Assembly (NCBI GenBank): GCA_965235115.1
Contig: OZ249436.1
Coordinates: forward strand, 25,546,001 to 25,610,000
Length of the DNA stretch: 64,000 bases
Reading direction: 5' to 3'
Origin: Laetmonice hystrix
Lineage: Eukaryota
Shown one piece after another: positions 8,510 to 50,165 of this stretch (position 1 is the first letter of the stretch; each line of letters starts with the position of its first letter). The notes under the pieces were generated by a model. The model did not search any database, was not told the origin of the DNA, and saw only the letters and a list, made by a program, of their open reading frames with translations. The translations under genes were made by a program, and so were the position numbers.

Positions 8510-8810
8510 TCCGAGCTCGGCGCCAAAGAGCCGGGATCATTTATGGAGGAGAAACGAGGGGTTTGCGTAGGTATATTAGTATAGGTACTCGCACATATGT
8601 ATCTAGGACCCATGTCGTGTGCTCAGTATGTATTGTCGAGGTAATGTAAACAATAGCTGTACTCCCGTTAACCACCATCTTGGTTCTCGCCTCTCGCGCG
8701 GTCTGGGTCGGAAATGACGAAGGCGACTTGGGAGACGATCCGGAGGGTATAAATACAACCGAGCAGAAGAGTCGAGTTCTCTACCTTTGGAAGCTTCGTG
8801 GAAATCAGAC
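8510..8810 (+). repeat. Element 1 repeat A1 (copy A2 at 13989-14289)
   Basis: 301-bp direct repeat TCCGAGCTCGG...GAAATCAGAC; the two copies look identical by eye. Confidence 0.97.
8748..8755 (+). promoter_or_regulatory. Candidate TATA box (TATAAATA) in repeat A of element 1
   Basis: GGGTATAAATAC lies near the 3' end of A1, where a + strand transcript of such an element would be expected to start. Motif match only. Confidence 0.4.
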
Positions 8811-10370
8811 TGATTCGTTCCCCACACATCGGGTGAGTTCGTTCTATGGTTGGGACTTCGTTTCAAGTATACGGTGGAACGTGGTTTGTCGACTGTTTCT
8901 TATATTTGCCTTGTGTTTGACACCTATATGCAGGTGTTATGTCTAAAACAGTTCCAGTTATTCGTCTTTCGAGGCTGTATTATAGACCGGTACCCAGTAT
9001 TTATGTGTGTCTGAAATAGTCACATGCAGTGTTGCAGCACGCACAGTCGCTTCCACGTGGTCGACCTGACCTTTGTGGTTCGGGCTCGGCTAGCCTACTT
9101 GAAGCTCCTGGTAGACAATTTGTGTTACGAGTTTGTAGTTATTTTAGTTCACCACACATTGAGGGCGACTGACGACGTCGGCGGTGCTATGTTGTGTAAT
9201 TTTGTGTACGTATTTGTCCCAGAATGGTAGTGGGGGTACGATAATTTCAGTTTTGTTTTACCGTGGTTTACTCCGTGTTGAGTAGGGTAATAGCGTTCGG
9301 TACCAAGGTTGAGCTTATAGGCCTACAACGGTTTGTCCTGCCACGTGGTGTATCATGGTGGGGGTAGGCTCGTAAAAGTGTGAGGTAGGCCTACATTGTC
9401 GTGGAGTTGGTGTTTTTCGCTAGTCCTCACTATGTGGGGTTGAAGGTTGGTAGAAGTTATGTTGTGTCCTTCGGTGGTTTGGGACTTGACCAGTGAACTG
9501 CTGTAACTTGACACGCCGGGTGTTCTTTAATTTATCTAGTCCCGTCTTATATAGGCGTTTACTGCTGCTCCTAATTGCAACAGTTGGTATGGTTTTCGAA
9601 GTGCCCTCCCTAGATTATGTTAAATACAGTGTTTATCGCTTGGCGGCAATGCTTCTTGCCGTTTGCTTGGGGTGCTTTTTGGATGTGGGTATGCTGCGCT
9701 GGTATTCGAGCGGTATGTGGTGCTGTTATTCGGGTAGAAGTATTTATTTACGGTGGACAGATTAATCTGGATGTATTGGCACCAGCTTTAACCTGATAAG
9801 CTTTGGAGATGGTTTGATGAATGTAATTTTACCTGACTTGTTGGACTCTAATTTAGTGTCGCTGATAATTTTCTTTCTCTTGTAGCCAACGAGTGGCTTA
9901 TCCCTGATATTATATCTGGATCTGGACAGGTGCCCCTCACTGTTCAGTGTGGTTCATTGATGCAGTCGCATGGTAGGGGGATTTCGTCAATGTTATTTTC
10001 TATGTAGTAGTTTGGTATTCACTCCTTGTGGTTGCTTTGTTTTGAGTCTATCCATTTGTAAGTATTTGATTTTGTATTTTTGAGTTTAGTTGTCCCCTGA
10101 ACCTTACTAGGCAGACTACCTGTCCCTCTGTTTCAGGATTTACATCATTTAATCTAATTGCCCCTGATTAATAGGCGTGTAGATTTAGCTACCACCTCAT
10201 CTGAAAGTTTTTGTCGTTTAAGTATTTTGCCAATAGTTTGTAGACCCACCCCACCCCACCCTTCCTCGTGTTAGTGAGGTGTGTGTGTGTGTTGGAGGAG
10301 GGGTGTGGGGGGGGTGTTGTGTTTACGAATAACGGGGCTCTGCTGATGTGGGCTTAATGTGGTGTAACAT

Positions 10371-11090
10371 ACGGTGTGTGGTCCCTTCGGTTCCGCTTTC
10401 CCTTGTGGTTGTGTTAACTTGGTTGGGGGATGGGGCCGTGTTCCGTGGGGTTGACGGTGTGTGGTCCCTTCGGTTCCGCTTTCCCTTGTGGTTGTGTTAA
10501 CTTGGTTGGGGGATGGGGCCGTGTTCCGTGGGGTTGACGGTGTGTGGTCCCTTCGGTTCCGCCTTCCCTTGTGGTTGTGTTAACTTGGTTGGGGGATGGG
10601 GCCGTGTTCCGTGGGGTTGACGGTGTGTGGTCCCTTCGGTTCCGCTTTCCCTTGTGGTTGTGTTAACTTGGTTGGGGGATGGGGCCGTGTTCCGTGGGGT
10701 TGACGGTGTGTGGTCCCTTCGGTTCCGCTTTCCCTTGTGGTTGTGTTAACTTGGTTGGGGGATGGGGCCGTGTTCCGTGGGGTTGACGGTGTGTGGTCCC
10801 TTCGGTTCCGCCTTCCCTTGTGGTTGTGTTAACTTGGTTGGGGGATGGGGCCGTGTTCCGTGGGGTTGACGGTGTGTGGTCCCTTCGGTTCCGCCTTCCC
10901 TTGTGGTTGTGTTAACTTGGTTAGGGGATGGGGCCGTGTTCCGTGGGGTTGACGGTGTGTGGTCCCTTCGGTTCCGCCTTCCCTTGTGGTTGTGTTAACT
11001 TGGTTGGGGGGTGGTGTCGTGTTCCGTGGGGTTCTGTCCTCCCTTGATAGGATTACCTTGGGGTCGACGGTGTGGTCCCTTCGGTTCCGT
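10371..11090. repeat. 83-bp G/T-rich minisatellite inside element 1 (7 full copies plus a degenerate tail)
   Basis: ACGGTGTGTGGTCCC starts at 10371, 10454, 10537, 10620, 10703, 10786, 10869 and 10952. Confidence 0.96.
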
Positions 11091-11948
11091 CATCCCCGTT
11101 ATATTACAAGTTGTTTTACGGCAGATGTGCCTGGTTTCCGCAGGCTGCCACATCCTTTGGTGCATTGTACTTCTAGTCCCCATGATGGGTGATCGATGGG
11201 TACCTATGTATATGGATGCGAGGGGATGTCCCCTCCGCTCTGCCTTTTTCGAGGATTAGAGCTGAATCTTTATTTTCTTGTTTTAAAGTTGTTTAAGAAG
11301 TCATTTTAGGTCGGTAGGTTGTTAGTAAGTCAGGTCACTTCTACTGTATTTTATTGTGTACTATGTGTTTACGCTTTTTGGATCTGCCTCGCCTTCGGGC
11401 TATGGTGGGACCGTCTGCACTTAAATATCTTGTTCATTAACTTTGTAAATTATCTTGTCAAATTTTCAATGTACTATTTTGTTAATTTGGTAATATTAGG
11501 TATCTTCGATAAAATTATTAACAATGTTAGTCAGGGTTGTCACCTTAGTTAAATGTTGCCTATTTAGTTTTTACTCTGTGTTGAGGGCTATAATTATATT
11601 ATATATTTATCGTCATTTCGTCTTATAATTATATTATATATTTATCGTCATTTCGTCTAACTATATAATTTCAATGTTAACTATAAAGGTAATAAGTATT
11701 ATCGTATTTTTGGATGATTAATTTGATTTGTCATAATGTATAAGGGGAATTTATGCAATTTTTTGATATTGAGTTGATTGTATTTGTCATAGGGCAGTAA
11801 CTATTATTCCTCTGCCAGATGTTTCTTCGGTCTTTTGTTATTTTCCATTTTAGGTGGACGACAGGCTGAGCATATGGCTTTGGTGCATGGGTCGTGGGAC
11901 GTATTCTATATTTACACATTCATTTGTACTGATAATGAGCTGATGGAA

Positions 11949-12952
11949 GGCTGAGTATGTGTCTTTGGTAGACTTTGGAGGTTTACTGATGTGGGTAAGG
12001 TCAATTCCCCGTGTTTTGAACCTGTGATGTTGTTCGAAGGCTGAGTGTTGATTTATATTATTCAAGGTTCGGTATGGTTCAGAGGTTGTTTGGTTTAGAG
12101 GTTCCTTTAGCTACCATCTCTATGGAATGTGTTTCTTGTAGGTATGTGGAATACTTGCCGCGTAGAGGCTTAACCCATGTTTGTGGTTGGTCTCGGATAT
12201 CAAGGCCTTTAACTTGTTCATGTGGTTATTATGTGTATAGGCTTAACCCATGTTTGTGGTTGGTCTCGGATATCAAGGCCTTTAACTTGTTCATATGATT
12301 CTGTGGTTATTATGTGTATGTGATGTGGTTATGTGGTTATTATGTGTGTGTATATACGGAGATCAGTTATCTTTTTAAGTTTTGGGAAACCTCCCGGGCC
12401 CAAGAGGTCCGTTGTGGATGTACTCCCAAGCGTGAAGCGTTTCCACGGTTTTTGACTACGACTTTCATGGTTCCTGATACGTTTGGCTGAGTATGTGTCT
12501 TCGGTTGACTTTGGAGGTTTACTGATGTGGGTAAGTCAATTCCCCGTGTTTTGAACCTGTGATGTTGTTCGAAGGGCTGAGTGTCGAATTATATTATTCA
12601 AGGTTCGGTATGGTTCAGAGGTTGTTTTGGTTTAGATGTTCCTTTAGCTACCATCTCTATGGAATGTATTTCTTGTAGGTATGTGGAATACTTGCCGCGT
12701 ATAGGCTTAACCCATGTTTGTGGTTGGTCTCGGATATCAAGGCATTTAACTTGTTCATGTGATCCTGTGGTTATTATGTGTATGTGATGTGGTTATTATG
12801 TGTATGTGTATATACGGAGATCAGTTATCTTTTTTAAGTTTTGGGAAACCTCCCGGGCCCAAGAGATCCGATGTTGGATGTATGTTGGACTCCCAAGCGT
12901 GAACCGATTCCACGGTTCTTGACTACGACTTTCATGGTTCCTGCTACGTTTG
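11949..12952. repeat. ~0.5-kb imperfect tandem duplication inside element 1
   Basis: GGCTGAGTATGTGTCTT... starts at ~11949 and ~12486, and both copies end ...GACTACGACTTTCATGGTTCCTG.TACGTTTG. The first copy has an extra ~70-bp internal duplication. Confidence 0.9.
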
Positions 12953-13712
12953 CGCGTCCTTCACCTCCAGTATTTGTTATTCCAGTAGTCTTCCCTTTTT
13001 ACGTTACCTTATGCTTACGTTACGATCCGTGTATCATTAAGTGTTGGGCTCTGTAGCTGTCTGGTGGGTACTAGTTTGGTACCGTACAAAGTGGTAGGTA
13101 AGTGCTCGGGGGCGGCTAGATAGACGACGCGTTGAAGGAGGTGGATGAAGTAAGCTTTAATTGGAATGTTGTCCGGTGCAGTGACGAGGCAGCTTTGTCG
13201 CCCGGTTCAGTGACGAGGAAGTTTGGATTGTTGCCCGGTTCGGTTATTTATTATTAAATATTTATAGTATGGTCCCAGGTGGTAGAATGGGATACCGTCA
13301 CGTTTTCCCACCAGTTTCTCAGTCTATCACAATTTCCCAGGATAAGTAAGTATGGTGTAATGGAGTTTAATGGTGGGTGCTTCCTGTTTGGTCAAGCAGC
13401 TGGGTGTTATAACTTGTTAACCTGACGTTATGATGTTGACTCCAAGGATCTAAGGTCTTCTTCCGTATGTCTTATGATTCAAAGCCTTGATATGCTTGTT
13501 GCAGGTACACCAGATGCCCCTAATCGGACTGGATGATGATGGGTTCCGCTATCCGTTCGTTCAGGCCAGGAGATGATCTGTGCCTAATTTCCAAGTTGTG
13601 TCTGACGGTGATGCGTAGATTTGGCTCCTGGGGCGGTGTCAGCGGGTCGCGTTGGGAGTCTTTTCCCCTGCCTTCTTTGGTGGCTCCAGCTTCATCTTCG
13701 ATTCCGCTTAGT

Positions 13713-13985
13713 GGCATTGTCTCCACCTAATAAGGCATTACTATACCTATATCTATGTATTTTGGACTATGTATTTCCATATAATGTATTATCGGTTATG
13801 TATTATATTACTATAGTATTGTTATGTTGTTACATATATCAGTTACACCTTATATAGATTTATCATTTACCATATTATAATGTTTGTAGAGTCCCCCATT
13901 GCATGGGGTGATCAACGGGTTACTATGTATGTGAATAAAATGTAACCTACAGCAAAGCATTCCCGTTCTCCGAGTTTGACTGCAT
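13713..13985 (+). repeat. Element 1 repeat B1 (copy B2 at 14452-14724)
   Basis: 273-bp direct repeat GGCATTGTCTCC...GAGTTTGACTGCAT, with AATAAA about 50 bp before its end (13934; 14673 in B2). Confidence 0.97.
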
Positions 13986-14724
13986 AAATCCGAGCTCGGC
14001 GCCAAAGAGCCGGGATCATTTATGGAGGAGAAACGAGGGGTTTGCGTAGGTATATTAGTATAGGTACTCGCACATATGTATCTAGGACCCATGTCGTGTG
14101 CTCAGTATGTATTGTCGAGGTAATGTAAACAATAGCTGTACTCCCGTTAACCACCATCTTGGTTCTCGCCTCTCGCGCGGTCTGGGTCGGAAATGACGAA
14201 GGCGACTTGGGAGACGATCCGGAGGGTATAAATACAACCGAGCAGAAGAGTCGAGTTCTCTACCTTTGGAAGCTTCGTGGAAATCAGACGGCCCACCTCC
14301 GCCCCGACTCCTCCATGTTTCAACGCCTTTGCCTGGTTTAAATTATGTTTTTATGTAGACCTACTGGGTTTGGCTTGGGGTCAGCATGGCTGCCCGAGTT
14401 CTTTTCTCAGTTTGGTTGGATAGGGATGTATTTGGGTTCCTGGATGTTGTGGGCATTGTCTCCACCTAATAAGGCATTACTATACCTATATCTATGTATT
14501 TTGGACTATGTATTTCCATATAATGTATTATCGGTTATGTATTATATTACTATAGTATTGTTATGTTGTTACATATATCAGTTACACCTTATATAGATTT
14601 ATCATTTACCATATTATAATGTTTGTAGAGTCCCCCATTGCATGGGGTGATCAACGGGTTACTATGTATGTGAATAAAATGTAACCTACAGCAAAGCATT
14701 CCCGTTCTCCGAGTTTGACTGCAT

Positions 14725-17700
14725 AAAAAACTTTCTACCCCGTTGCAAGTCACATTAGCTTGCTGCTTGTCGTAAAAAATGGTGCAGACCATTTCTAAAG
14801 TCACAGTACCCCACTCCCGGCCTAATATTACGTTTCAGTATCCATATACGCTGCAAGCGGCAGGAACTCGAATACAGGCCTAAAAGTAACCCCAGTCTAG
14901 CAATATCATACTCCCATGCCATATACGAGCTTGTAATTATCTTTAATTAATGGGCTCCGCAGCACCAACCCACTGCATTAACATTTGTTTAACAGCTTAA
15001 CGCACCTTGTAAAATTTGTTCAAGTGCGTAAAAATGCGTGTGCACCTCCACATACTTTAGAAATCACTATACCCACCCAGCGACATCCACTCTAATACAC
15101 GCCTAAAAGGAACTTCACTGTCCCATTTGATTCTCCAGCACGTATAGGATGTTTCAAGTAACATTCATCCACGGTCTGGCCCAATAACGTGCAACAAGGC
15201 ATAGTAAGTCAATGCGAGCTCGCATGTCAAACCTAACCCGCCCCCCAGCACATGAGCTGAAAATATTCAAATAGCTTGAAAACTAGAATATAGCTTTGCT
15301 TAATACCATTATACCATCAACTCGCATTACAGGCCTAATGCGAAGCTCCCAGCCTAAAACGAGTTTCCAATTAATTTAAAGTTAACAAGATGCACTAATA
15401 ATCGATTCCAAGCCTAATTAGGCCATTGCTAGTTGGATAACAAAATCTCATACAAAATACACCCTCCCGGCAGATGACCTGAGAATATTCAACTCTTATG
15501 TCCGATATATCCCTGTCCGCTTAGTAGCACCCAGCCGGGCCCCCATTTTGACATTGCAACACCAATACAGCAAGTGCCCAGCTAACAGCACAAATAACAG
15601 GATTCAGGGCTTCCTACCACGTTACAAGTCACAATAGATTGCTGCCTGTCGTAAAAATATACCAGACCATTTTAAAAAGTCACAGAACCCCAATCCGGCC
15701 CTAGTATGTCACTCCCAGTACCAATAGACGCTGGAAGCACCATCAACTGAAATTCAGGCCTAGAACCCACCTCTCTCTACCAATATCATGCACCTAGTCC
15801 GTATACGAGGTTGTAATTTACTTTAATCAACGGGCTGCGCCGCAGCAACCCACTCTGGTCTTTGCAATCTTTTTCAATATGCGTTAACATTTGTGACCAG
15901 CTCAACGCGCCTTGTAAAATTTTTCAAAGTGCGTAAAAGTGTGTGTCCACCCCGACACGCTTTCCAAACCACTATACCCACTGAGCGACATCCACTCAAA
16001 TACAGGCTTCGACCGATCCTCACTGTGCCAATAATCCGCCACAAGGCAAATTCAGTCAATGCAAGCTGGAAAATCGAATGTCAAACCTAATGCTCCCCCC
16101 CCCCCAGCACGTTAACTGAAAATAATCAACTAGCTTGAAAACTAGAATATAGCTTTGTTTAGCTAACAATCTACTCTCCCAGCGCCATCAACTCGCATAC
16201 AGGCGTAAAAGCAAACGCACTGCCCCATATAATGCTCCCAGCCTAAAACGATGTTGCAATTAATTTAAAATTAACAAGATGCACTAGTCATCCGATCCAA
16301 GCCTAATTACGTCATTGCTAGTTTCATAACCAAATCTCACAGAAAATACCCCACCCGGGCACATAACCTGAAAATATTCAACTTTTATCTCCAATGTATC
16401 CCTGTGCACCTAGTAGCACCCAAGCGAGCCCAATTTTGACATTCCAACACAAATGCCGCAAATACCCGCCTAATGGCACAAAAAACTTTCTACCCCGTTG
16501 CAAGTCACATTAGCTTGCTGCTTGTCGTAAAAAATGGTGCAGACCATTTCTAAAGTCACAGTACCCCACTCCCGGCCTAATATTACGTTTGAGTATCCAT
16601 ATACGCTGCAAGCGGCAGGAACTCGAATACAGGCCTAAAAGTAACCCCAGTCTAGCAATATCATACTCCCATGCCATATACGAGCTTGTAATTATCTTTA
16701 ATTAATGGGCTCCGCAGCACCAACCCACTGCATTAACATTTGTTTACCAGCTTAACGCACCTTGTAAAATTTTTTCAAGTGCGTAAAAATGCGTGTCCAC
16801 CTCCACATACTTTAAAAATCACTATACCCACCCAGCGACATCCACTCTAATACACGCCTAAAAGGAACTTCACTGTCCCATTTGATTCTCCAGCCCGTAT
16901 AGGATGTTTCAAGTAACATTCATCCACGGTCTGGCCCAATAACGTGCAACAAGGCATAGTAAGTCAATGCGAGCTCGCATGTCAAACCTAACCCGCCCCC
17001 CAGCACATGAGCTGAAAATATTCAAATAGCTTGAAAACTAGAATATAGCTTTGCTTAATACCATTATACCATCAACTCGCATTACAGGCCTAATGCGAAG
17101 CTCCCAGCCTAAAACGAGTTTCCAATTAATTTAAAGTTAACAAGATGCACTAATAATCGATTCCAAGCCTAATTAGGCCATTGCTAGTTGGATAACAAAA
17201 TCTCATACAAAATACACCCTCCCGGCAGATGACCTGAGAATATTCAACTCTTATGTCCGATATATCCCTGTCCGCTTAGTAGCACCCAGCCGGGCCCCCA
17301 TTTTGACATTGCAACACCAATACAGCAAGTGCCCAGCTAACAGCACAAATAACAGGATTCAGGGCTTCCTACCACGTTACAAGTCACAATAGATTGCTGC
17401 CTGTCGTAAAAATATACCAGACCATTTTAAAAAGTCACAGAACCCCAATCCGGCCCTAGTATGTCACTCCCAGTACCAATAGACGCTGGAAGCACCATCA
17501 ACTGAAATTCAGGCCTAGAACCCACCTCTCTCTACCAATATCATGCACCTAGTCCGTATACGAGGTTGTAATTTACTTTAATCAACGGGCTGCGCCGCAG
17601 CAACCCACTCTGGTCTTTGCAATCTTTTTCAATATGCGTTAACATTTGTGACCAGCTCAACGCGCCTTGTAAAATTTTTCAAAGTGCGTAAAAGTGTGTG

Positions 17701-29335: not shown

Positions 29336-29907
29336 AGGGAAATGTGAGTGTTCGACTCCACCACTAGAATTTTCAAAATATTTTTATGGGGGATAGCCTT
29401 TGTCCTTAGGAGTACAAAGAAACAAAAAAAATCATATGTCACCGAATTAGATTTTTTTATACAGGCCTCCGTAAAAAATGGGTCCTTACTATAGGTTTCA
29501 ATGGGGAAAACAGGAATTTTTAGACATTTTGTCTAATAGTTAAAAAATGACCACCAATTTTCTCCTGAAACTCGGTGACAAGATAAAGTGGATCAAGACT
29601 AATAGTTTAAAACAAAAAAAATTGGGGGTCACCGAATCAACAAAAAAGTTACAGCCTGCCAAACAGTCAGTGCCTTGGTAAAACACGGGTCTTAACTATA
29701 GCATTCAATGGAGTAGACAGGTTCTGGCACACAGTTTGGTTCATTTTTTAAAAAATACTACTGATTTCCAGATCAAACTAGTTGACTGCATAAATAAGCC
29801 AAACAGTTTTCTTTTAAAGCTCACTACGCGGCGCTTTGAATACTCACATTTTCCCCGTGGTACCAACGCGGCTCACTAGGTGGCGCTTTAAACACTCACA
29901 TTTCCCT
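29336..29907. mobile_element. 572-bp non-autonomous DNA transposon (MITE), Kolobok-like
   Basis: TTAA is duplicated (29332-29335 and 29908-29911; single in other monomers). Perfect 17-bp TIR AGGGAAATGTGAGTGTT / AACACTCACATTTCCCT. Purine-purine 5' termini with a TTAA TSD fit Kolobok rather than piggyBac. Confidence 0.85.
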
Positions 29908-30202: not shown

Positions 30203-30424
30203 GGCACGTTGTAACCGAAGGTTCAACGAATTTTATGCAGGAAAACACGAGAGGCCTACTGTCTGAATCAGTGCCGTCATGGCAACAACTTTCTGGGTCA
30301 TGTGTTGAATAATTATGTCACGCCGAATCCCATCATGCATCATGCCGCAACCGGTTGACGACCGTGACGTTGTCCTTGAATCTTCCCACTTTCTTCAAGA
30401 CACGCAGGGTAACGGTTTTCAGTG
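30203..30424 (+). repeat. Element 2 repeat A1 (copy A2 at 36738-36959)
   Basis: 222-bp direct repeat GGCACGTTGTAACC...GGTTTTCAGTG. Confidence 0.97.
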
Positions 30425-31354
30425 GCAACGGTCGCATTTTATCACTCTCAATCGTCTTAATTTTAGTTCATCCGAGGTTGAGTTTCTAGTCACGTCTTTA
30501 TAAAATGGTCACCCGTCTTTTGTACTTGCTTTCATTTTCTAGGCATAGTCTGTTGGCCTAGGTTTAGCCATCTTTATATCTCCTAGGAGTTAGGCCTAGG
30601 CTAAGCAAAATGGCGTCTGGGTACGTCTTGATTCTTACTCTTAGTGACAGCATTCATCTTCGTCGTCCTGTCACAGATACCCAAGGAGTTTAGTTCTAGA
30701 GTGAATCCGAATTTAACGTCACCGTTAGTTCTTTACTATCGGGGTAGATCTAGATCTAGTGAATGTGGCTGTAGTTTTGTTATAGACTAGATCTAGTTGA
30801 TTGATAATGATACTGATAGTGATAGACACTAGTCACTAGGCTAGTCAGGCTAGCCGGTCTAACTGGATCGACTTGTCTTATGTCATGAATTTGATACTTA
30901 GCCTGAGCCTACATTAGCGTTTAATCTAACGACGTTAGTTATGACTATATCTACTACTACTAGTTTAGAATCTAGTAACCTCGTTAGTCACTTATTGACT
31001 TAGTGTTTGACGTTGGCTCTGAGGACGGGTGGCTACGTGTCGTGTCTATTAAAATGCCATTGAATTTTGTCGTGCGGGAGTAGATCTACAAGAGTGACCG
31101 TTTTGTTTTCATCCATCATTCTGATTGGTTATTTCCTATTGCCAATGTTTCCCTACACATGTAAATTATTGTATAAATGCTACCTTAACCTGATATATTA
31201 CTACATTAAATTCATTCTATTGGCCACGGTTTCTTTATACATCATTATTGATACATTACAATTTACAGCATATTTGTGAATGATGATTGATATGTATCCC
31301 GTATATTGTACATTACGGGGCCTGTTTAATTAATCTGGCTACGTGTGTTGTATA

Positions 31355-33660
31355 TATTTTTTATTGCTACATTATACACCTTATGATTGCTATATTTAGA
31401 CCTTATTGGGAGACCATTTGGTTCTCTTTATTATTGGTCACATTTTATTACGATTGATATTAATGGGATTTAGATCCCTTATTTTTGTGTTGGGCTCTGT
31501 CATCGAGAGACTATACTGCTTTCTCTTTGATCAGTAGTTCCAATTTTCTTTTCAGTCTTTATATGTTTATTATTGCTACAGTATACACCTTATTATTGCA
31601 GACCTTATTGGGAGACCGTTTGGTTCTCTTCATTATTGGTCACATTTTATTATTTTTGATATTAATGGGATTTATATCCCGTATATTTTTGCGTTGGGCT
31701 CTGTCATCGAGAGACTATACTGTTTTCTCTTTGATCAGTAGTTCCAATTTTCTTTTCAGTCTTTATATGTTTATTATTGCTACATTATACACCTTATTAC
31801 TGCTATAGACCTTATCGGGAGACCGTTTGGTTCTCTTCATTATTGGTCACATTTTATTATGATTGATAAAAATGGGATTTACCGGTATATCCCGTATTTT
31901 TGTGTTGGGCTCTGTCATCGAGAGACTATCATGTTTTCTCTTTGATCAGTAGTTCCAATTTTCTTTTCAGTCTTTATATGTTTATTATTGCTACATTATA
32001 CACCTTATTATTGCTATAGACCTTATTGGGAGACCGTTTGGTTCTCTTCATTATTGGTCACATTTTATTATGATTGATATTAATGGGATTTATATCCCGT
32101 ATATATTTTTGCGTTGGGCTCTGTCATCGAGAGACTATACTGTTTTCTCTTTGATCAGTAGTTCCAATTTTCTTTCCAGTCTTTATATGTTTGTTATTGC
32201 TACATTATACACCTTATTATTGCTATAGACCTTATTGGGAGACCGTTTGGTTCTCTTCATTATTGGTCACATTTTATTATGATTGATATTAATGGGATTT
32301 ATATCCCGTATTTTTGTGTTGGGCTCTGTCATCGAGAGACTATCATGTTTTCTCTTTGATCAGCAGTTCAAATTTTCTTTTCATTCTTTATATGTTTGTT
32401 ATTGCTACATTATACACCTTATTATTGCTATAGACCTTATTGGGAGACCGTTTGGTTCTCTTCATTATTGTTCACATTTTATTATGATTGATTGATATTA
32501 ATGGGATTTATATCCCGCATATATATTTTTGTGTTGGGCTCTGTCATCGAGAGACTATCATATTTTCTCTTTGATCAGTAGTTCCAATTTTCTTTTCAGT
32601 CTTTATATTCTTTATTATTGCTATATTATACACCTTATTAAATATTGCTATATTTAGACCTTATTGGGAGACCGTTTGGTTCTCTTCATTATTGGTCACA
32701 TTTTATTATGATTGATTGATATTAATGGGATTTATATCCCGCATATATATTTTTGTGTTGGGCTCTGTCATCGAGAGACTATCATATTTTCTCTTTGATC
32801 AGTAGTTCCAATTTTCTTTTCAGTCTTTATATTTTTATTATTGCTATATTATACACCTTATTATTGCTATATTTAGACCTTATTGGGAGACCGTTTGGTT
32901 CTCTTCATTATTGGTCACATTTTATTATGATTGATTGATATTAATGGGATTTATATCCCGCATATATATTTTTGTGTTGGACTCTGTCATAGAGAGACTA
33001 TAATGTTTTCTCTTTGATCAGTAGTTCCAGTTTTCTTTTCAGTCTTTATATTTTTATTATCGCTACATTATACACCTTATTATTGCTATATTTAGACCTT
33101 ATTGGGAGACCGTTTGGTTCTCTTCATTATTGGTCACATTTTATTATTATGATTGGAATTAATGGGATTTATATCCCGTATATATTTTTGTGTTGGGCTC
33201 TGTCATTGAGAGACTATCATATTTTCTCTTTGATCAGCAGTTCCAATTTTCTTTTTAGTCTTTATATTTTTATTATTGCTACATTATACACATTATTAAT
33301 GCTGTATTTAGACCTTATTGGGAGACCGTTTGGTTCTCTTCATTATTGGTCACATTTTATTATGATTGATATTAATGGGATTTATATCCCGTATTTTGTG
33401 TTGGGCTCTGTCATCAAGAGACTATCATGTTTTCTCTTTGATCAGTAGTTCCAACTTTCTATTCAGTCTTTATATTATTATTATGGCTACATTATACACT
33501 TTGTTATTGCTATATTTAGACCTTATTGGGAGACCGTTTGGTTCTCTTCATTATTGGTCACATTTGATTATGATTGATATTAATGGGATTTATATCTCGT
33601 ATATATTTTTGTGTTGGGCTCTGTCATCGGGAAACTATCGGGTTTTCTCTTTGATCAGCA
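31355..33660. repeat. T-rich ~205-225-bp tandem array (about 11 copies) inside element 2
   Basis: TTTTG(T/C)GTTGGGCTCTGTCATCGAGAGACTAT (or a close variant) recurs at ~31483, 31687, 31899, 32107, 32312, 32527, 32752, 32971, 33186, 33395 and 33607. Confidence 0.95.
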
Positions 33661-33661
33661 G

Positions 33662-34480
33662 CTTATGCTGGATTATCACCCCCTTCTCATGTCTGGCTCA
33701 CATTTAGTTTACCCGATTGATTTTGTTTCAATACTTTGTTTTTGCTTTGATGATACAATATATTATTCTATTGGCCTGATATGACATTGAGAGATCGTTG
33801 GGCTTATGCGAGATTAGCAGCCTTTCTCATGTCTGGCTCACATTTTAGCCAATTGATTTTTGTTTCAATACTTTGTGTTTGCTTCGGCGATACAATATAT
33901 TATTGCTTTTGTCCTGATATGACATTAAGAGATCGTTGGGCTTATCCTGGATTAGCAGCCCTTCTCTGAGTTCTCATGTCTGGCTCACATTTACCCAATT
34001 GATTTTGTTTCAATACTTTGTGTTTGCTTCGGCGATACAATATATTATTGCTATTGGCCTGATATGACATTAAGAGATCGTTGGCCTTATGCTGGATTAG
34101 CAGCCCCTTCTCATGTCTGGCTCACATTTACCCAATTGATTTTGTTTCAATACTTTGTGTTTGCTTCGGCGATACAATATATTATTGCTATTGCCCTGAT
34201 ATGACATTAAGAGATCGTTGGGCTTATGCTGGATTAGCGGCCCCTTCTTATGTCTGGCTCACATTTACCCAATTGATTTGTTTCAATTCATATTATATTA
34301 CCTCAGTTGATGTGATATATTCACGATACATAGACTCTTTTATTGAGATATTATACTTTGTCTCTGCTTCAGTGATTCAATATATTTACTTGATATTGGC
34401 CTCATATGACATTGACTGAGGGATCGTTGGGCTTATGCTAAATTAGCAGCCCTTCTCATGTCTGGCTCATATTTACCCAA
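33662..34480. repeat. ~140-bp tandem array (about 5 copies plus a degenerate one) inside element 2
   Basis: GCTTATGCTGGATTAGCAGCC..TTCTCATGTCTGGCTCACATTT recurs at ~33662, 33802, 33940, 34085, 34222 and 34431. Confidence 0.9.
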
Positions 34481-36174
34481 CTGATTTATTTCACTTCATA
34501 CTGTATTACTTTACTTCATTACTGTTGATGTGACATGTACACGATACATAGTCTTTTTATTGAGATTATATAATATACTTTGTCTTTGCTTCAGTGATGC
34601 AATATTATATTTACTTGATATTGGCCTCATATGACATACCAGTCCCAAATTTTCAGTCTCTTAATATTTATATTATTATAATTTTTGCTTCAGTGATACA
34701 ACATTATAGTTAATTGATATAGGCCACTGCATATATGCCAATGCCAATGAAAGATCGTTGGGATTCGACTGTCCTGAGTTTGCAGCCCATCTAGGATCTG
34801 GCTCACATTTAACCATTTTGTTTACGTTGCAATTACATCGAGTGATGTGATGCGTTCACGACATAAATGTTGTATTCACTGTTAGGCTCAGCCATTGAGA
34901 GACCATCGAGTGTTCTGTTGGATCAGTGCGACAGCAGTTCAAATGTTCAGTCTCTTTTACATTTATTTTACTTTTTGCTGCTTCAGAGATACATTATTAT
35001 AATATTAACAATATTTTGTTGGCCGTATATGCCATTGGGAGATCGTGGGTTTCCCCTGGATTAGCAGCCTATCAGTATCACATGTGTGCCTAACATTTGA
35101 TTTACGTCCAATTTATATTATATTACATTTATGTTATTATACATATGTATTATTATTACATGTAAACCATGGTTTTTCGCCACTGATTGACATATCATCT
35201 AGGCTTATCTCTATCATCAAATTCGTAGATATCAGTTTAATTTCATAATCGTATATTACGTAACGATTTACATTATGCTAAATGAATTATTCAGTATAAT
35301 ATTATACTTGCCCTATACGGCCAATGTTATACACAACATGAATTATTCAATCTGGGCGTTTTGTCATTGACTTTGGCTCTACAATGAGCCCTTCAATTCA
35401 ATCAACTTCAATGAGCGGGTTGTTACCCTGGCCATGTTCCCTTGTACGGCTTCTGTTCATGATGGCGACTACACGATGGAGGTCCAAGCCCAAGCTCCCA
35501 CGGAATTCTCCGATCTCCATGCCCCCATGCAAGAGGGAGCGTCTCATTATGGGTCAAGCGGAACCGGGTCGGCCTCAACTATTTCGCAAGGATTCGCGGC
35601 TGGTGTCCAGACGGTTCCCATTTACGACTGTTCAGGGAGGTTGGAGATAGGAGTTCGGCCCGGCCTGAGCCTCGACTGGGTACTCCAAGTCTCTTCCAGA
35701 CCATTCTTGCTGTGGCCAGATGCAGTGGTGCAAGAGCAGATCTACGTGTGTGATCTGTATGATCATATAATATTAGCAAAGAATGCTTTTCACCAACAAT
35801 CGCGGTGTCTCCTTGAAACTCCGTATGGACGCTTCAGTTAAAATGGGATTTGGAGCGGTTTTTCGGATCTGACTAGATAATAGGCCTAGTCGGTGTCCAT
35901 CTTCGTTGGATCGACAAGATGTTTTTATTGGAGCTATACCTCCATTCTTTTTGCAGTTGCCCTGTGTGGGGAATATGTTTGAAACTCCATGGTTGAGTTT
36001 CATACCATAATATTTGTGACACAATCATTAACTCAACTTGACCTTCAAAGAATCAAGGAAACAAGGGAAAGCGGATGATTTGCATCGGTTGCAGAATAGG
36101 CGTTTCATTTCCCTGCATCCCTGCACTGTGTGTTGTGGGTGGCTCCACCTGCTTGTTCCAAGCAGGTTAGTGGC

Positions 36175-36734
36175 CTGCGTCGCCACTCACATTTAACTGT
36201 TCAACACATTCTTAACCCTTTAACACATATTTTTTAACGATAATGTTCCTATTTTTAGATTTGGGAACATAGACATTAATGGTTTCGAGACGGTGCAGTG
36301 TGGACTCACTGTCAAGAGTAATACCAATTCATGGACATTTAGTTATTGGTACCGTTAGTTGTAATTTTCTACCATATCTATTCCCATGACAATGCAGTGT
36401 GGGCTCATTGTCAAAAATGGGACATTAATGGTTTCGAGACGGTGCAGTGAGGGCTCACTGTCAAGAGTAATACCAATTCATGGACATTTACTTATTGTTA
36501 CCGTTAGTTGTAATTTTCTACCATATCTATTCCCATGACAATGCAGTGTGGGCTCATTGTCAAGAATGGGATGGTGACACCCTTTCTGTTCAGAAATAAC
36601 CTAATTGTCCTAAACCTTTAATTAATGTTGGACACGTGCAGTGTGGGCTCACTGTCCAACTTATATTTTTAATATTATAATAAACGGGTGTTGCCCAAAT
36701 AACAACATTATCTGTTTCCGAGTGTTGCCTGCAT
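36175..36734 (+). repeat. Element 2 repeat B1 (copy B2 at 37006-37565), with an internal ~149-bp tandem duplication
   Basis: 560-bp direct repeat CTGCGTCGCCAC...GTTGCCTGCAT. GACATTAATGGTTTCGAG occurs at 36272 and 36421; AATAAA at 36679. Confidence 0.97.
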
Positions 36735-37565
36735 AAAGGCACGTTGTAACCGAAGGTTCAACGAATTTTATGCAGGAAAACACGAGAGGCCTACTGTCTG
36801 AATCAGTGCCGTCATGGCAACAACTTTCTGGGTCATGTGTTGAATAATTATGTCACGCCGAATCCCATCATGCATCATGCCGCAACCGGTTGACGACCGT
36901 GACGTTGTCCTTGAATCTTCCCACTTTCTTCAAGACACGCAGGGTAACGGTTTTCAGTGCCTCCACCGCCCCACCTGCCGCCTTAGGCCATCTGTTTGAT
37001 GGGCTCTGCGTCGCCACTCACATTTAACTGTTCAACACATTCTTAACCCTTTAACACATATTTTTTAACGATAATGTTCCTATTTTTAGATTTGGGAACA
37101 TAGACATTAATGGTTTCGAGACGGTGCAGTGTGGACTCACTGTCAAGAGTAATACCAATTCATGGACATTTACTTATTGTTACCGTTAGTTGTAATTTTC
37201 TACCATATCTATTCCCATGACAATGCAGTGTGGGCTCATTGTCAAAAATGGGACATTAATGGTTTCGAGACGGTGCAGTGAGGGCTCACTGTCAAGAGTA
37301 ATACCAATTCATGGACATTTACTTATTGTTACCGTTAGTTGTAATTTTCTACCATATCTATTCCCATGACAATGCAGTGTGGGCTCATTGTCAAGAATGG
37401 GATGGTGACACCCTTTCTGTTCAGAAATAACCTAATTGTCCTAAACCTTTAATTAATGTTGGACACGTGCAGTGTGGGCTCACTGTCCAACTTATATTTT
37501 TAATATTATAATAAACGGGTGTTGCCCAAATAACAACATTATCTGTTTCCGAGTGTTGCCTGCAT

Positions 37566-40500
37566 AAATAACAGGATTCAGGGCTTCCTACCACGTTACA
37601 AGTCACAATAGATTGCTGCCTGTCGTAAAAATATACCAGACCATTTTAAAAAGTCACAGAACCCCAATCCGGCCCTAATATGTCACTCCCAGTACCAATA
37701 GACGCTGGAAGCACCATCAACTGAAATTCAGGCCTAGAACCCACCTCTCTCTACCAATATCATGCACCTAGTCCGTATACGAGGTTGTAATTTACTTTAA
37801 TCAACGGGCTGCGCCGCAGCAACCCACTCTGGTCTTTGCAATCTTTTTCAATATGCGTTAACATTTGTGACCAGCTCAACGCGCCTTGTAAAATTTTTCA
37901 AAGTGCGTAAAAGTGTGTGTCCACCCCGACACGCTTTCCAAACCACTATACCCACCGAGCGACATCCACTCAAATACAGGCTTCGACCGATCCTCACTGT
38001 GCCAATAATCCGCCACAAGGCAAATTCAGTCAATGCAAGCTGGAAAATCGAATGTCACACCTAATGCTTCCCCCCCCCCCCCCAGCACGTTAACTGAAAA
38101 TAATCAACTAGCTTGAAAACTAGAATATAGCTTTGTTTAGCTAACAATCTACTCTCCCAGCGCCATCAACTCGCATACAGGCGTAAAAGCAAACGCACTG
38201 CCCCATATAATGCTCCCAGCCTAAAACGATGTTGCAATTAATTTAAAATTAACAAGATGCACTAGTCATCCGATCCAAGCCTAATTACGTCATTGCTAGT
38301 TTCATAACCAAATCTCACAGAAAATACCCCACCCGGGCACATAACCTGAAAATATTCAACTTTTATCTCCAATGTATCCCTGTGCACCTAGTAGCACCCA
38401 AGCGAGCCCAGTTTTGACATTCCAACACAAATGCCGCAAATACCCGCCTAATGGCACAAAAAACTTTCTACCCCGTTGCAAGTCACATTAGCTTGCTGCT
38501 TGTCGTAAAAAATGGTGCAGACCATTTCTAAAGTCACAGTACCCCACTCCCGGCCTAATATTACGTTTGAGTATCCATATACGCTGCAAGCGGCAGGAAC
38601 TCGAATACAGGCCTAAAAGTAACCCCAGTCTAGCAATATCATACTCCCATGCCATATACGAGCTTGTAATTATCTTTAATTAATGGGCTCCGCAGCACCA
38701 ACCCACTGCATTAACATTTGTTTACCAGCTTAACGCACCTTGTAAAATTTTTTCAAGTGCGTAAAAATGCGTGTCCACCTCCACATACTTTAAAAATCAC
38801 TATACCCACCCAGCGACATCCACTCTAATACACGCCTAAAAGGAACTTCACTGTCCCATTTGATTCTCCAGCCCGTATAGGATGTTTCAAGTAACATTCA
38901 TCCACGGTCTGACCCAATAACGTGCAACAAGGCATAGTAAGTCAATGCGAGCTCGCATGTCAAACCTAACCCGCCCCCCAGCACATGAGCTGAAAATATT
39001 CAAATAGCTTGAAAACTAGAATATAGCTTTGCTTAATACCATTATACCATCAACTCGCATTACAGGCCTAATGCGAAGCTCCCAGCCTAAAACGAGTTTC
39101 CAATTAATTTAAAGTTAACAAGATGCACTAATAATCGATTCCAAGCCTAATTAGGCCATTGCTAGTTGGATAACCAAATCTCATACAAAATACACCCTCC
39201 CGGCAGATGACCTGAGAATATTCAACTCTTATGTCCGATATATCCCTGTCCGCTTAGTAGCACCCAGCCGGGCCCCCATTTTGACATTGCAACACCAATA
39301 CAGCAAGTGCCCAGCTAACAGCACAAATAACAGGATTCAGGGCTTCCTACCACGTTACAAGTCACAATAGATTGCTGCCTGTCGTAAAAATATACCAGAC
39401 CATTTTAAAAAGTCACAGAACCCCAATCCGGCCCTAGTATGTCACTCCCAGTACCAATAGACGCTGGAAGCACCATCAACTGAAATTCAGGCCTAGAACC
39501 CACCTCTCTCTACCAATATCATGCACCTAGTCCATATACGAGGTTGTAATTTACTTTAATCAACGGGCTGCGCCGCAGCAACCCACTCTGGTCTTTGCAA
39601 TCTTTTTCAATATGCGTTAACATTTGTGACCAGCTCAACGCGCCTTGTAAAATTTTTCAAAGTGCGTAAAAGTGTGTGTCCACCCCGACACGCTTTCCAA
39701 ACCACTATACCCACCGAGCGACATCCACTCAAATACAGGCTTCGACCGATCCTCACTGTGCCAATAATCCGCCACAAGGCAAATTCAGTCAATGCAAGCT
39801 GGAAAATCGAATGTCAAACCTAATGCTCCCCCCCCCCCCCAGCACGTTAACTGAAAATAATCAACTAGCTTGAAAACTAGAATATAGCTTTGTTTAGCTA
39901 ACAATCTACTCTCCCAGCGCCATCAACTCGCATACAGGCGTAAAAGCAAACGCACTGCCCCATATAATGCTCCCAGCCTAAAGCGATGTTGCAATTAATT
40001 TAAAATTAACAAGATGCACTAGTAATCCGATCCAAGCCTAATTACGTCATTGCTAGTTTCATAACCAAATCTCACAGAAAATACCCCACCCGGGCACATA
40101 ACCTGAAAATATTCAACTTTTATCTCCAATGTATCCCTGTGTACCTAGTAGCACCCAAGCGGGCCCAATTTTGACATTCCAACACAAATACCGCAAATAG
40201 CCGCCTAATGGCACAAAAAACTTTCTACCCCGTTGCAAGTCACATTAGCTTGCTGCTTGTCGTAAAAAATGGTGCAGACCATTTCTAAAGTCACAGTACC
40301 CCACTCCCGGCCTAATATTACGTTTGAGTATCCATATACGCTGCAAGCGGCAGGAACTCGAATACAGGCCTAAAAGTAACCCCAGTCTAGCAATATCATA
40401 CTCCCATGCCATATACGAGCTTGTAATTATCTTTAATTAATGGGCTCCGCAGCACCAACCCACTGCATTAACATTTGTTTAACAGCTTAACGCACCTTGT

Positions 40501-43517: not shown

Positions 43518-44614
43518 TAATCCTGCACCAAGTTTTGGGAACTAAAAACTTAGTTTTTTCAACATCGGCGCATTAAAACCCTTCTCGTGACGCGGAATCT
43601 CAGTCAATTACTTAAGGAATGGTAGCAAATAAAACTAGAGACTGCAGGCTATTTATCAGTCTAAAAATTACACCAGGTTGCTAAGTTATAATTTCTACAG
43701 AGGTGTTTGAAAAACGTATAAGTTTCTCAAAAAGTCGCAAAACTCATGACCTTTCGAGATTCGAGCTTTTGTCACGCAAAATCTGTCCCGACGACCTGTA
43801 CAAAAAAGTACCCAGAATTATTCCCCACATCGTAAGGTCTCCATGGATACCTTTCTTTTAGCGAGATTCCTTATAGTTTTGAATACAGCGAGCTTTGTTT
43901 GGAAATTTATAAGTTCCCAAAACTTTGATAATGACGTTAAATATCACAATAGACAGCCAGGCTCCAATCTAAGCTGTGTAGGATCAGAGGCCTACAGTGA
44001 TGTTTACGGAGGTATTATAATGCTATAATTTTCTGAGACTATCTACTGACCTTCGAAGTCTCTGCTTCTGTAGTATTTTAATCCATCTTTTAATAAAACG
44101 AGAGCTAGACAGCAAAATAGTGCAGTCTACGTTAGTCGTCACGACTGTGCCGCACGTCCTATCTATGACGTCACAGCCACAGTTGACTTAACGAGGCACG
44201 CACTGTCTTTTTGTCAGTGAAACATTGTAATATTATGTATCAAAATACGTAGTTAACTATTCTATGATGTCACAAGTGACAATGAAAGCACAAACAGATC
44301 GAACCCAGGCTATAAAATTGTAGCCAATGCAGATTATGAGGACGTTATCGCCGGCCAGTCTCTGACCCAAGCGATGACAACGAACGTGTTGACGGCTCTA
44401 CCAGCCCAAGACACCCGGCCAGTACACTGGTTTTTGAGCAGCAGCGCTCTAAAATAACACCTTCTAACTATAAAATAATGATTTACTTTTATAACATTCG
44501 GGTTTGCATAAATATTAAGACTAACTGCCCATACTATTATCACCTAGAACGATATAATAACTAGACACGTTGTGGCGATACCACAATTGATCCCATCCCC
44601 GGGGAGTCACGTGA

Positions 44615-45095
44615 TATATGACATGTTCTGAGTAGGGTAAACTATGGCTCGATCTTGCACAGTTAATGACCTATAAGCTTTAGAAGATGCCAATGACGTA
44701 ATTATGAGGTGACACGTCATACTATGTAATGAATCTTGGTCTCAAATGAAAGAGCATGTAGGCTATATGACTTCCTATTACTGTTTAATAGTAACTATAG
44801 CTCTAACTTCTACCATTTACAAGTTATAGCCCTGAGAAAAATACCTAAAAAAATGTCAAGTGAAAGATCATATATGACTTCCTATTAGGGTTAAATGGTA
44901 ACCATTGCTCTATCTTGAATGGTTTAGGATTTAGAAACCTTCGAAGATGTCAATGGCATCATTATGACATAATAATGATACATTACATCATAAATCTTGG
45001 TGTCAATTGAAAGAGCATACAATGTATATGACTTCCTATTCCTGTTCAATAGTAACCATGGCTCCATCTTGCACCGTTTACAAGTTATAGGCTGA
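44615..45095. repeat. Degenerate core tandem repeats of the HINE (about 4 copies, ~110-155-bp spacing)
   Basis: ATATGACTTCCTATT...AATAGTAAC.ATGGCTC.ATCTTG-like motif at ~44616, 44765, 44872 and 45026; one copy at ~47863 in the inner element. Confidence 0.7.
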
Positions 45096-46631
45096 AGAAA
45101 TAATGATAACATCATAACGTCATGCTCCTCCCGCAGGCATGCACAGATCCAGGTATCGAGGTTCTTTGCTGGAATTTAGAAGGTCAAAAAACGCTATTTC
45201 TGGAGATAGATGTAAAGTTTCTCAAAGTATTTAAGGCGCGTGTCGGTAGACCCCATTCTCCGCCAGAACATAGATTCTTTTTCCCTTCAACACGGAACGA
45301 ACAGGTGCAAAGCATTCCGGCTATTTTCAACTAGTTGAGTGATGAATCCACAAAATATAATGCCCTAAAATGGCCCTAAAAGGCGGAAAATCGTTTTATA
45401 AGAGCTTTTAATTTTTTAAGATTTCCCGAGACCCCTCTGCTGAAAATCCTGGACCCGTGGCTAGCCTAACAATAATTTTTTGTCAATTCTTCAAAAAGAA
45501 AGAGTGGGGGTATAGAGGGATGTGCCCACGCCGGGCGGCGCCGGGCGGCGCCACCCGGCACCGATTTTAGCCGCCTGGCACAAAACTAAAATGGTTTAAG
45601 TGCTGCCCGGCAGGAATTTTTATCAGGCCTATCATCTGAAAAAATATCTCCCCATCTGCACCCCTTGCCAACTGAAAACCTTGCGCCTTCGCTGCTAGCG
45701 GAAAACTACCGCCCGGCACTCATTTTTTTCTGGGCGCATCTGCCCATGGCAAGTTGACTTGTGCACTGAAAAGTGCTTTCCTATATATTTTAGTATTATA
45801 CAAAAATGATAGCCTCATAACATAACAGTTCAATGTGTCTAATTACAGTGCTAATTTTCTCTTCACCCTTGTTAACATTTCTTCTTGGTAGTAGAGTCGT
45901 CGCTTGAGTTTTGAAGCTTTTATTCCTGAGGCACACGGTTGTCCCGCTTCGACCAATATGTCACTAGGCAGTCAGTGTCTATATGTTCCTCATAGACAAA
46001 TCTATATCTCTGTCCTTTCTCTGCTCCTTCTCCCCTAGTCTCTCTCTCTGTCTCTTGGTGCTCTCATATATCCCCTCGTTCCCGTTTTTGCCCCAGTCCC
46101 AGTTTAAAGGATGGTCACTGGTCATTGGCCGGTGGCCCACGTCCAATTAACTGACCGCCCCCTGACCGGCTCCTCTGATTGAGAGCTGCCGCCCTATGGC
46201 TGGCATGTTATATGACTGAGAAGGTACCTCTTCTATAAACAGTCCTTAAGTATTTCTCACAGAGCGTTCCCCTTCTCCCTTCCGCAGACCCGCTCAAGTG
46301 ATTGCTGCATCTATTGTGTGTGCTGCTCGCCAGGACGACTGCATACCTGTCTACTGTGCACACCGTTCGTTCACTTCTATCTCTCGCCATTTAGCCAACA
46401 CGTAGTCATACATCATGAAACTTTACCAATAGGTGCGAATGTCATCCACACCAGACTGTTGGCTCAGGCTAAACCAAGTGCAGCTGACCAAAAGCTTGTC
46501 GTGTCACTTGAACTCCACAACCAACAATCAGTAGTATTGTTTTATTCAGCTCTCCTACATAAGATTCAAAAACAAATGCATTAGGCAGTTACACCTACAG
46601 TTCAAAGGCACAGCTAAGTCAGTTCTGAATA

Positions 46632-46838
46632 CAGGTATATCGCCCATGATAACTTAAACTCCACGAAATTTGGTGGAAAGGAAAGATTCATGGCCCTGAC
46701 CTTATCCCTAACCCCTAACCCCTAACCCCAGTTCCTACACCTCCCCAAAACATATCCCTACCCTACCCCTATCCCTGATATTAACCCTAACCCCTGCCCA
46801 AACATTTCGTGGAAAGTTATCATGGGGGATAGAACCTG
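46632..46838. mobile_element. 207-bp MITE with a 4-bp AATA TSD and a CCCTAA-like interior
   Basis: AATA at 46628-46631 and 46839-46842. ~40-bp imperfect TIR CAGGT..TATC.CCCATGATAACTT...CCACGAAAT. The empty site GTTCTG-AATA-CACAATCA is visible in the paralogous region at ~48971-48988. Confidence 0.88.
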
Positions 46839-47806
46839 AATACACAATCATATTCCTCCCTCACTGGGAGGGAGGGGGAGTAGGCCGGCCGGCCGGCCCT
46901 TATCACCAGCACTTACGTAACTCTCTCCCGGCCTGGCCAGGGACCGGCGGCCGCATCACAGTGGGAGATCTGTGTATTCAGAGATGCCAACAGTCAGACG
47001 GCAAAAATATTATTGTGAAGACTATACCCATTAAAACTTACAATTCTGGCCATATTACCTTTCCAAAACAAGAACTAAACAGCCAGTGGTATACCTGAAT
47101 CTATACACTTTGTAATTGTTGTATTTGTATATGGCTATCTTAAACAGGTTTAAGGTAGAGCCTGTCAACGTCAGATTACATTATTTCATCATAAATAAAA
47201 AAGATATTGGTAAATTTATGAAAAGAAATATGCAAAGTGATCAATCGTCAATAGCAGCACATATCTATTGACCAAATACACGATTCCTATATGACTAAAG
47301 CAGTTTTAGAAAAAAATGTCAAAAGTGACAAACTTCAAAGTCACGTGGTTCGGTAAAAATAGGTCAAATCGCTAATCCTTGGAATCGTATTGTGAACCTT
47401 TCGTTAGAGAGTGTTTCTGCCGAATATTGTCGAATTTTACCAAAAAATAGAAAAGGAGAAGCAATTTAACTGATTTGTGACCAATGACCCAGTTCACCCT
47501 AAGGTCAAAGGTCAAAGGTCAAATCAAGACTCAAATTGAGGCAGCACCTATGGCCGATTATGAGGCCATGACGGGTTTTTAAAAAAATTCCCAATATGAG
47601 CTTAAAAATGGCTTCAATTTTCATAATACGTTTGACGTCATCACGTTATGACGTGACGTCACATGACGTCAGGATTCGATGCCTGACCATACTTCGTCAT
47701 TGTCAAGATGTGTGCCAAATTTCATTTCGATATTTTGAAAATTGACTGAGATAGACATACAAGTTTACTACTACTACTACTACTACTACAACTACGACGC
47801 CAAAAA

Positions 47807-50028: not shown

Positions 50029-50165
50029 TAATACAGAAGACGAAACCACACAATTTCTAAATCCCATCCCCTCCGTAGGGGATGGGATAATTAACATGTT
50101 CTGGGGTTTCAAGTGGGGGTTGAACTGGATGACCTCCCAAGTTCCCAATTTACGGTGCAGGACTA

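Follow-up and report, generated by a model that had tools for sequence, protein, structure and literature searches.

Two non-coding elements interrupt a satellite array

The window, that is the whole 64,000-nucleotide stretch of DNA that was analysed (C1:25546001-25610000 of the 627-Mb, 35-contig host genome that we searched), is mostly tandem satellite. The repeat of about 1754 bp is built from two related monomers of 888 and 866 bp that are about 62% alike, and its copies in the window are 98-100% identical. No ORF longer than 144 aa was found in the whole window, with ORFs called by the bacterial code. The array is interrupted four times, and two of these interruptions are the non-coding elements described here, Element 1 (E1, 8510..14727) and Element 2 (E2, 30203..37568), both on the + strand.

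E2 has the layout A1-internal-B1-A2-spacer-B2 and is inserted after a satellite GCACAAA, with no target duplication. Repeat A1 (30203..30424) is identical to A2 (36738..36959), and B1 (36175..36737) is 99.6% identical to B2 (37006..37568), which forms the right end and whose last bases are the donor TGCATAAA. A unique C-rich spacer (36960..37005) lies between A2 and B2. A decayed pol/recombinase remnant is found at 35720..36120, which at the DNA level is 70-87% identical to a coding relative's RT/RH and YR-start region.

E1 represents a second non-coding family with an E2-like layout, inserted after the GCACAAA of the other satellite monomer. It consists of A1 (8510..8810), B1 (13713..13988), A2 (13989..14289) and, at the right end, B2 (14452..14727). 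The 5′ neighbourhood of B1 (13609-13733) matches the YR end of two coding elements (L089/L090) at 70%. Over both elements the split direct repeats A1...B1-A2-B2 are 100% identical between A copies and 99.6-100% between B copies. Compared with empty satellite monomers, E1 and E2 show neither duplication nor loss, and the triplet AAA is common to the target and the junction.

Several smaller features were also seen. Internal minisatellites of E1 and E2 lie at 10371-11033, 31351-34287 and 36272-36571, with units of 83, ~219, 137 and 149 bp; the ~219-bp array is also present in the coding relative on C20. A C-rich tract opens the spacer after A2 (14290-14310 and 36960-36980, as well as in metagenome elements L257 and L272) and could be a priming tract. 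TATAAAT occurs near the 3′ end of the E1 A repeat (8748-8754 and 14227-14233, approximate positions, by eye), a possible TATA-like putative promoter.

Elsewhere in the window, a composite 6.6-kb insertion (43524-50165) carries internal duplicated repeats (46883-47806 versus 49052-49966, 95%) and ends that by eye resemble imperfect ~28-bp inverted repeats; it is probably a DNA transposon with nested repeats. A 572-bp non-satellite insertion (29336-29907) sits ahead of the satellite segment carrying E2 and contains a GCATAAA at 29788 without B context.

Element class and coding relatives

According to the definitions given in the cited parts of PMC9210276, PMC3783388 and PMC8547959, E1 and E2 are non-autonomous Ngaro-type retrotransposons of the DIRS order. 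They share with Ngaro the A1...B1-A2-B2 split direct repeats, the lack of target duplication and a 3-bp core common to the target, and their coding relatives in this genome encode gag, RT/RH and YR and gave no methyltransferase match. They differ in that the window copies are non-coding and filled with tandem repeats.

Searching the genome with the E2 junction gave a match of 86% identity on C20, which belongs to an 8.2-kb element with E2's repeats and three overlapping ORFs (354, 627 and 330 aa). The A, B and 5′ repeats of this element and of E2 are 80-88% alike. Its first ORF has no Pfam match and is read as gag-like from a terminal Cys/His cluster, its RT/RNase H ORF matches RVT_1 (E 1.7e-13) and the third encodes a recombinase. 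The gag, RT/RH and YR ORFs are absent from E1 and E2, and E2 retains decayed pol-region pieces of the C20 type. For E1 the genome yielded no near coding partner; L088-L090 come closest, at ~70%.

The catalytic residues R149, H257, R260, W283 and Y291 are invariant across 12 aligned recombinases of coding relatives. Against solved structures, all 17 matches were to Cre or Tre and none to IntI, with weak scores (E 0.005). A tree of the elements, built without reference Ngaro sequences, has a single split, between SDR and ITR/ICR elements (100/100). A methyltransferase (Dam) match was found in 0/5 pol ORFs scanned from SDR elements and in 1/2 from ITR/ICR elements (E 2e-5). Three loci (L117/L121/L122) were considered as PAT-like; having no methyltransferase match and falling on the SDR side of the tree, they were kept as short-repeat Ngaro-like. 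Viral contigs yielded no relative, and contigs from sequencing runs yielded just variant families already seen.

A few kb past the window, an intact Ngaro-type element of another family (L104, C1:25611900-25621899) has a satellite-like right flank. On another contig (C5:36673264-36711727) seven recombinase fragments stand in tandem at a spacing of 6.2-6.7 kb.

The B-A junction forms a predicted hairpin

An earlier note on this DNA had reported an inverted repeat where B1 meets A2, and its coordinates and sequences are right for both elements. In E2, CCTGCATAAA (36728-36737) is followed by a 29-nt insert and then by TTTATGCAGG (36767-36776). In E1, TGCATAAA (13981-13988) is followed by a 30-nt insert and by TTTATGGAG from 14019. 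The inner stems pair in both elements as that note described.

The full outer stem of E2 is formed by a 5′ arm at the end of B (36722..36737), with the crossover right after 36737, and a 3′ arm in A (36767..36783). The insert between them (36738..36766, the start of A) contains a 4-nt/3-nt internal loop and an inner stem (36742-36763) with an extrahelical base at 36747 and a GAA loop at 36752-36754. The E1 hairpin (13980..14027) has its 5′ arm up to 13988, the crossover after 13988, the insert at 13989-14018 and the 3′ arm from 14019, with one G-G mismatch.

In windows picked around the feature, the E2 junction folds as DNA at -19.3 kcal/mol (z -4.4), with 0/200 shuffles as good. The E1 fold is weaker, at z -1.9 over 96 nt (10/200 shuffles) and z -2.9 over 57 nt (1/200). 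Mean folding energies at the junction, left end and right end are -18.9, -8.5 and -5.5 for E2 and -14.1, -9.5 and -4.0 for E1. The proposal that the structure exists only across the junction is borne out for the outer stem, which needs B joined to A, and fails for the inner hairpin, which is contained entirely within A and is still present at the left end (-6.2 and -6.3 kcal/mol in the two elements). Genome-wide, the arm-gap-arm pattern gave 96+94 matches versus 5+4 for a reversed control, with palindromic matches counted twice.

The fold is conserved across diverged families

We examined 40 loci around recombinase genes, selected from 103 and 94 matches, of which 20 had usable direct repeats. 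Six near-copies (L097, L103, L104, L110, L111 and L122) were left out, and E1, E2, the C20 element and a third non-coding family were added, giving 18 junctions from as many families. Junction windows were taken from the repeats; six cut points were shifted by hand by 1-3 nt within ambiguous shared bases.

All in all, the 18 families have diverged in sequence and share a common fold: an outer stem with the crossover atop its 5′ arm, an internal loop and an inner stem-loop. Outer-stem positions are Watson-Crick paired in 144/162 cases, compared to 90.7±3.3 (maximum 103) in a shuffled null, and arms from the same family pair at 8.0 of 9 positions versus 5.75 of 9 for arms from different families. 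Sixteen of the 18 junctions fold at z <= -2.4; folding of L099 (z -1.3) and L121 (z -0.7) is no better than that of shuffles, and L091 and L107, read ungapped, pair at just 6/9 positions. The core is AAA/TTT in most families and TAA or TAT in three. Base -1 is paired in 16/18 families, so that the top of the stem coincides with the crossover, and in 18/18 the cut arm exceeds the other arm by 1-4 unpaired bases.

Within the seven-member E1/E2 clade, 5/13 pairs change on both sides and 0/500 shuffles reach the covariation score, a control inflated by kinship among the clade members; families and copies are related rather than independent. In the same seven sequences 95.6% of cells pair, against 27-47% in slid controls. 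The inner stem of the E2 clade has one bulged base, and its loops, C-GAA-G and C-GCA-G, loosely resemble GNA triloops, which are stable in DNA. The expectation of a fixed 29-30-bp spacing did not survive as a general rule: the insert measures 22-35 nt across the 18 families, with 29-30 confined to the E1/E2 clade.

In most families the antisense strand folds significantly as well. Wobble pairs had been considered as a guide to the strand, since minimum-energy folds have 22 G.T pairs on the sense and 7 on the antisense strand. A strand-neutral count nonetheless gives 11 G.T versus 9 A.C oppositions (expected ratio 1.3), so wobble pairs do not choose a strand.

The fold is not limited to this genome. 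From 80 metagenome loci we obtained 41 clusters with sequence past a related YR gene. A strict motif scan after the YR genes matched in 8/41 clusters (shuffles 0-1; coding-region control 2/41) and a relaxed one in 12/41 (null mean 4.2, maximum 7). The asymmetry of unpaired bases is weak in these matches, with 7 positive, 3 negative and 2 even. In L266 the B end, set by repeats alone, falls atop such a stem. Two metagenome elements (L257 and L272) that run from B-A into internal sequence were rejected as evidence for circles, as a collapsed short-read assembly can yield the same pattern, and short repeats in L250 and L294 were ruled not to be junctions.

One-sided insertion scars

To describe left borders we used the first 30 of 38 E1 matches and the first 30 of 38 E2 matches; 59 of these have an A start and one (L160) is incomplete. 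In an unforced reading, 59/59 of these left ends open with donor bases +1..+8. B does not stand ahead of A in any of the 59, which makes the number of permuted copies 0/59. Flanks are common to some of the copies. Counted once each, the left flanks number 55 and consist of target DNA, with A at -1 in 55, at -2 in 51, at -3 in 46 and at -5 in 34, and the donor GCATAAA closes 0/55 of them.

The right ends show the opposite arrangement. All 48 unique right ends retain donor TGCATAAA, again unforced (one of 20 additional right-end regions contained no end). In the right flanks, A or T is found at +1 in 45/48, T at +6 in 35/48 and T at +7 in 38/48; against a background of 0.29 the last two have p values of 4e-10 and 9e-13. 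Seventeen insertions of other families behave alike, with A/T at +1 in 16/17 and T at +6 and +7 in 11/17 and 12/17.

The target consensus is therefore AnAAA|W-N4-TT, a degenerate two-arm AA-N5-TT site whose 5-bp spacer is unlike the donor's spacer. Targets of this kind are ordinary DNA. The consensus implies an overlap on the right-hand side of AAA and cleavage of the sense strand. No overlap homology was found between donor and target, and a second-strand product is absent from the 59 left and 48 right ends. A cut on the antisense strand, with AAA as overlap homology, fits the junction bases equally well but not TT at +6/+7 and is disfavoured.

Satellite-specific targeting was rejected: the satellite or a relative of it matches just 2/30 E1 and 9/29 E2 left flanks, at several positions. 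Four E2 copies on C18 (L172, L174, L175 and L176) share one satellite-related left flank, which suggests one insertion amplified with its tandem array. Tandem units on C29, considered as permuted or circular forms, resemble instead an insertion near the B end followed by tandem duplication.

A mirror pattern in DIRS1-like elements

DIRS1-like elements share the 3-bp circular junction and have inverted instead of direct repeats. Among these ITR/ICR elements, 5/6 loci have an ICR-templated junction with a similar fold of stem, loop and inner stem, again with the crossover atop the stem (L114 is less clear; L112 and L119 are one family). The geometry and the scars are antisense here, with the crossover triplet atop the 5′ arm of the antisense strand. 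In one family, 16/16 left ends keep donor bases and 16/16 right ends turn to variable target at the cut. Read antisense, and with one nested copy excluded, the targets have T at +1 in 14/15 and, instead of TT at +6/+7, TT at +8/+9 (10/15 and 12/15).

As far as Table 3 of PMC3266345 goes, 18/28 elements match the junction at both ends and 2 are ambiguous, while 7/28 differ at the end triplet only, with the first base kept, and 1 at the start only; AcasDIRS1 goes the opposite way. The relevant part of PMC7192593 describes DIRS-1 cDNA as mostly linear and single-stranded, integrating after transformation, with a failed PCR for the circle junction; it cites antisense cDNA and retains the duplex-circle model.

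As a side observation, the left flank of L112, itself a DIRS1-like element, looks like the hairpin region at the right end of a different DIRS1-like family, which echoes DIRS self-insertion.

A candidate single-strand attachment site

The earlier note had taken the junction for a recombinase attachment site that integration splits. Both points agree with our data: the crossover lies atop the 5′ arm of the outer stem, the coding relatives have recombinases with intact catalytic residues, and the outer stem is divided at the crossover. The same note had suggested that the site might be used as a folded single strand. Covariation, one-sided scars and the absence of permuted copies favour this. 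We put at roughly 60% the probability that the B-A junction is an attC-like folded single-strand donor site at which one strand is exchanged, a reading drawn from the scars in the sequence.

In such a reaction, the outer and inner stems would be two recombinase-binding arms and the internal loop an unpaired spacer, for which no overlap homology would be needed. Only the sense strand would be cut, after AAA, and exchanged, and the cut arm's surplus of unpaired bases may select this strand. The product would then be resolved by replication or repair, as happens when integron attC recombines with attI or attG. Just the newly made B2-A1 junction would be available single-stranded, and splitting of the stem would make insertion one-way. 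For E1 and E2 the recombinase could be supplied in trans by coding relatives in the genome, and DIRS1-like elements would follow the same process on antisense cDNA.

The main competing explanation is a classical duplex circle, whose junction would recombine as a cruciform or as duplex arms with both strands exchanged and one product hidden by biased repair. Both strands do fold and a cruciform is expected to have identical hairpin geometry, so the fold itself suits this model. A duplex circle nevertheless has two identical B-A junctions, and with two equal junctions permuted copies would be expected about half the time, yet there are 0/59. Donor and target share no homology in the 5-bp overlap, and the 59 left and 48 right ends hold no second-strand product. 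Typical tyrosine-recombinase sites have a 6-8-bp spacer, whereas in duplex form the inverted arms here would be 22-35 bp apart. We regard the duplex circle as unlikely, even though the prevailing view of DIRS-order integration, in the parts of PMC7192593, PMC3266345 and PMC5633606 that treat it, is that a double-stranded circle recombines through a 3-bp match.

Rather improbable, in our judgement, is that the hairpin has its role at the RNA level or in reverse transcription (a template switch, priming or packaging) and that the 3-bp core alone suffices for integration. In both groups the orientation favoured is that of the element RNA (B1-A2 in Ngaro, the ICR in DIRS1-like elements), so RNA-level selection fits too. 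The gradient of matches at -1/-2/-3 (55, 51 and 46 of 55) also resembles primer annealing, and a hairpin at the 3′ end of DIRS-1 RNA serves as RT primer in a proposal by Poulter and Goodwin that PMC7192593 quotes. Against an RNA role stand a stem top that coincides with the crossover, base -1 being paired in 16/18 families, and a second target arm (TT at +6/+7) placed where the donor's inner stem begins. The scars also flip along when the layout changes strand with the element type, and the ends are precise, without duplication or deletion. Finally, a chance palindrome or by-product of the repeats' origin without current function is very improbable: short inverted repeats are common and E1 alone is modestly significant, but the hairpin recurs at an equal position in 18 families with compensatory changes, and in other organisms. 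Covariation and the pairing in 18 families largely refute this last explanation.

Taking up the folded single-strand donor again, we tentatively extend it, at a little under even odds, to all DIRS-order elements. These would integrate from folded single-stranded cDNA by one strand exchange into loose AA-N5/7-TT targets, as an independently evolved eukaryotic counterpart of attC. Split direct repeats on the one hand and inverted repeats with an ICR on the other would then be two ways to one hairpin, on opposite strands.

Relation to known systems

Neither the element class nor the 3-bp core is new. The conserved junction hairpin, the two-arm target consensus and the one-sided scars are undescribed in the Ngaro literature as far as the cited sources extend. 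A look-up of the term 'hairpin' gave no mention in the available text of PMC8547959, PMC9210276, PMC3266345, PMC6681497, PMC4157794 or PMC13465315, a single unrelated mention in that of PMC5633606 and, in that of PMC7192593, the DIRS-1 3′-end RT-primer proposal only. Our literature search found no conserved folded junction as an attachment site in the texts it covered; the founding DIRS/Ngaro papers and supplements may mention one. According to the corresponding section of PMC7192593, the specificity of DIRS-order enzymes has not been investigated experimentally.

With donor structure, cut position, strand and target consensus now specified, the mode of insertion becomes testable with oligonucleotides and one purified protein. 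To our knowledge, structure-specific single-strand recombination is known only from bacterial integrons and filamentous phages. If our reading is true, it operates in animal genomes as well, which would account for the missing permuted elements and for the integration of single-stranded DIRS-1 cDNA, and would offer an element-encoded eukaryotic single-strand integrase.

Integron attC sites, as presented in the cited part of PMC2727003, have two paired arms, an unpaired spacer, extra bases and a variable loop, and exchange one strand. The predicted fold shares the two arms, unpaired spacer, extra bases, variable loop and little sequence conservation. Another likeness is to attC x attG recombination, in which genomic targets are very short, loose motifs (10.1101/2022.09.11.507474, in the portion used here). 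The AAC/GTT R-box consensus of attC is different from the AAA core found here, the junction belongs to a eukaryotic retroelement with no integron platform, and the recombinase is Cre-like, not IntI. By analogy, the junction probably works like attC without being one, as both core and enzyme differ.

CTX phage relies on the host Xer recombinases (XerCD) and a fixed dif target, whereas the enzyme here is element-encoded and the targets are dispersed. The likeness is to the phage attP, a folded single-stranded donor with one strand exchange followed by replication (PMC3442271, relevant part); the corresponding donor here is read from the scars. From a duplex core of the loxP type the junction differs in that the donor arms lie 22-35 bp apart and the spacer of the target is unrelated to that of the donor.
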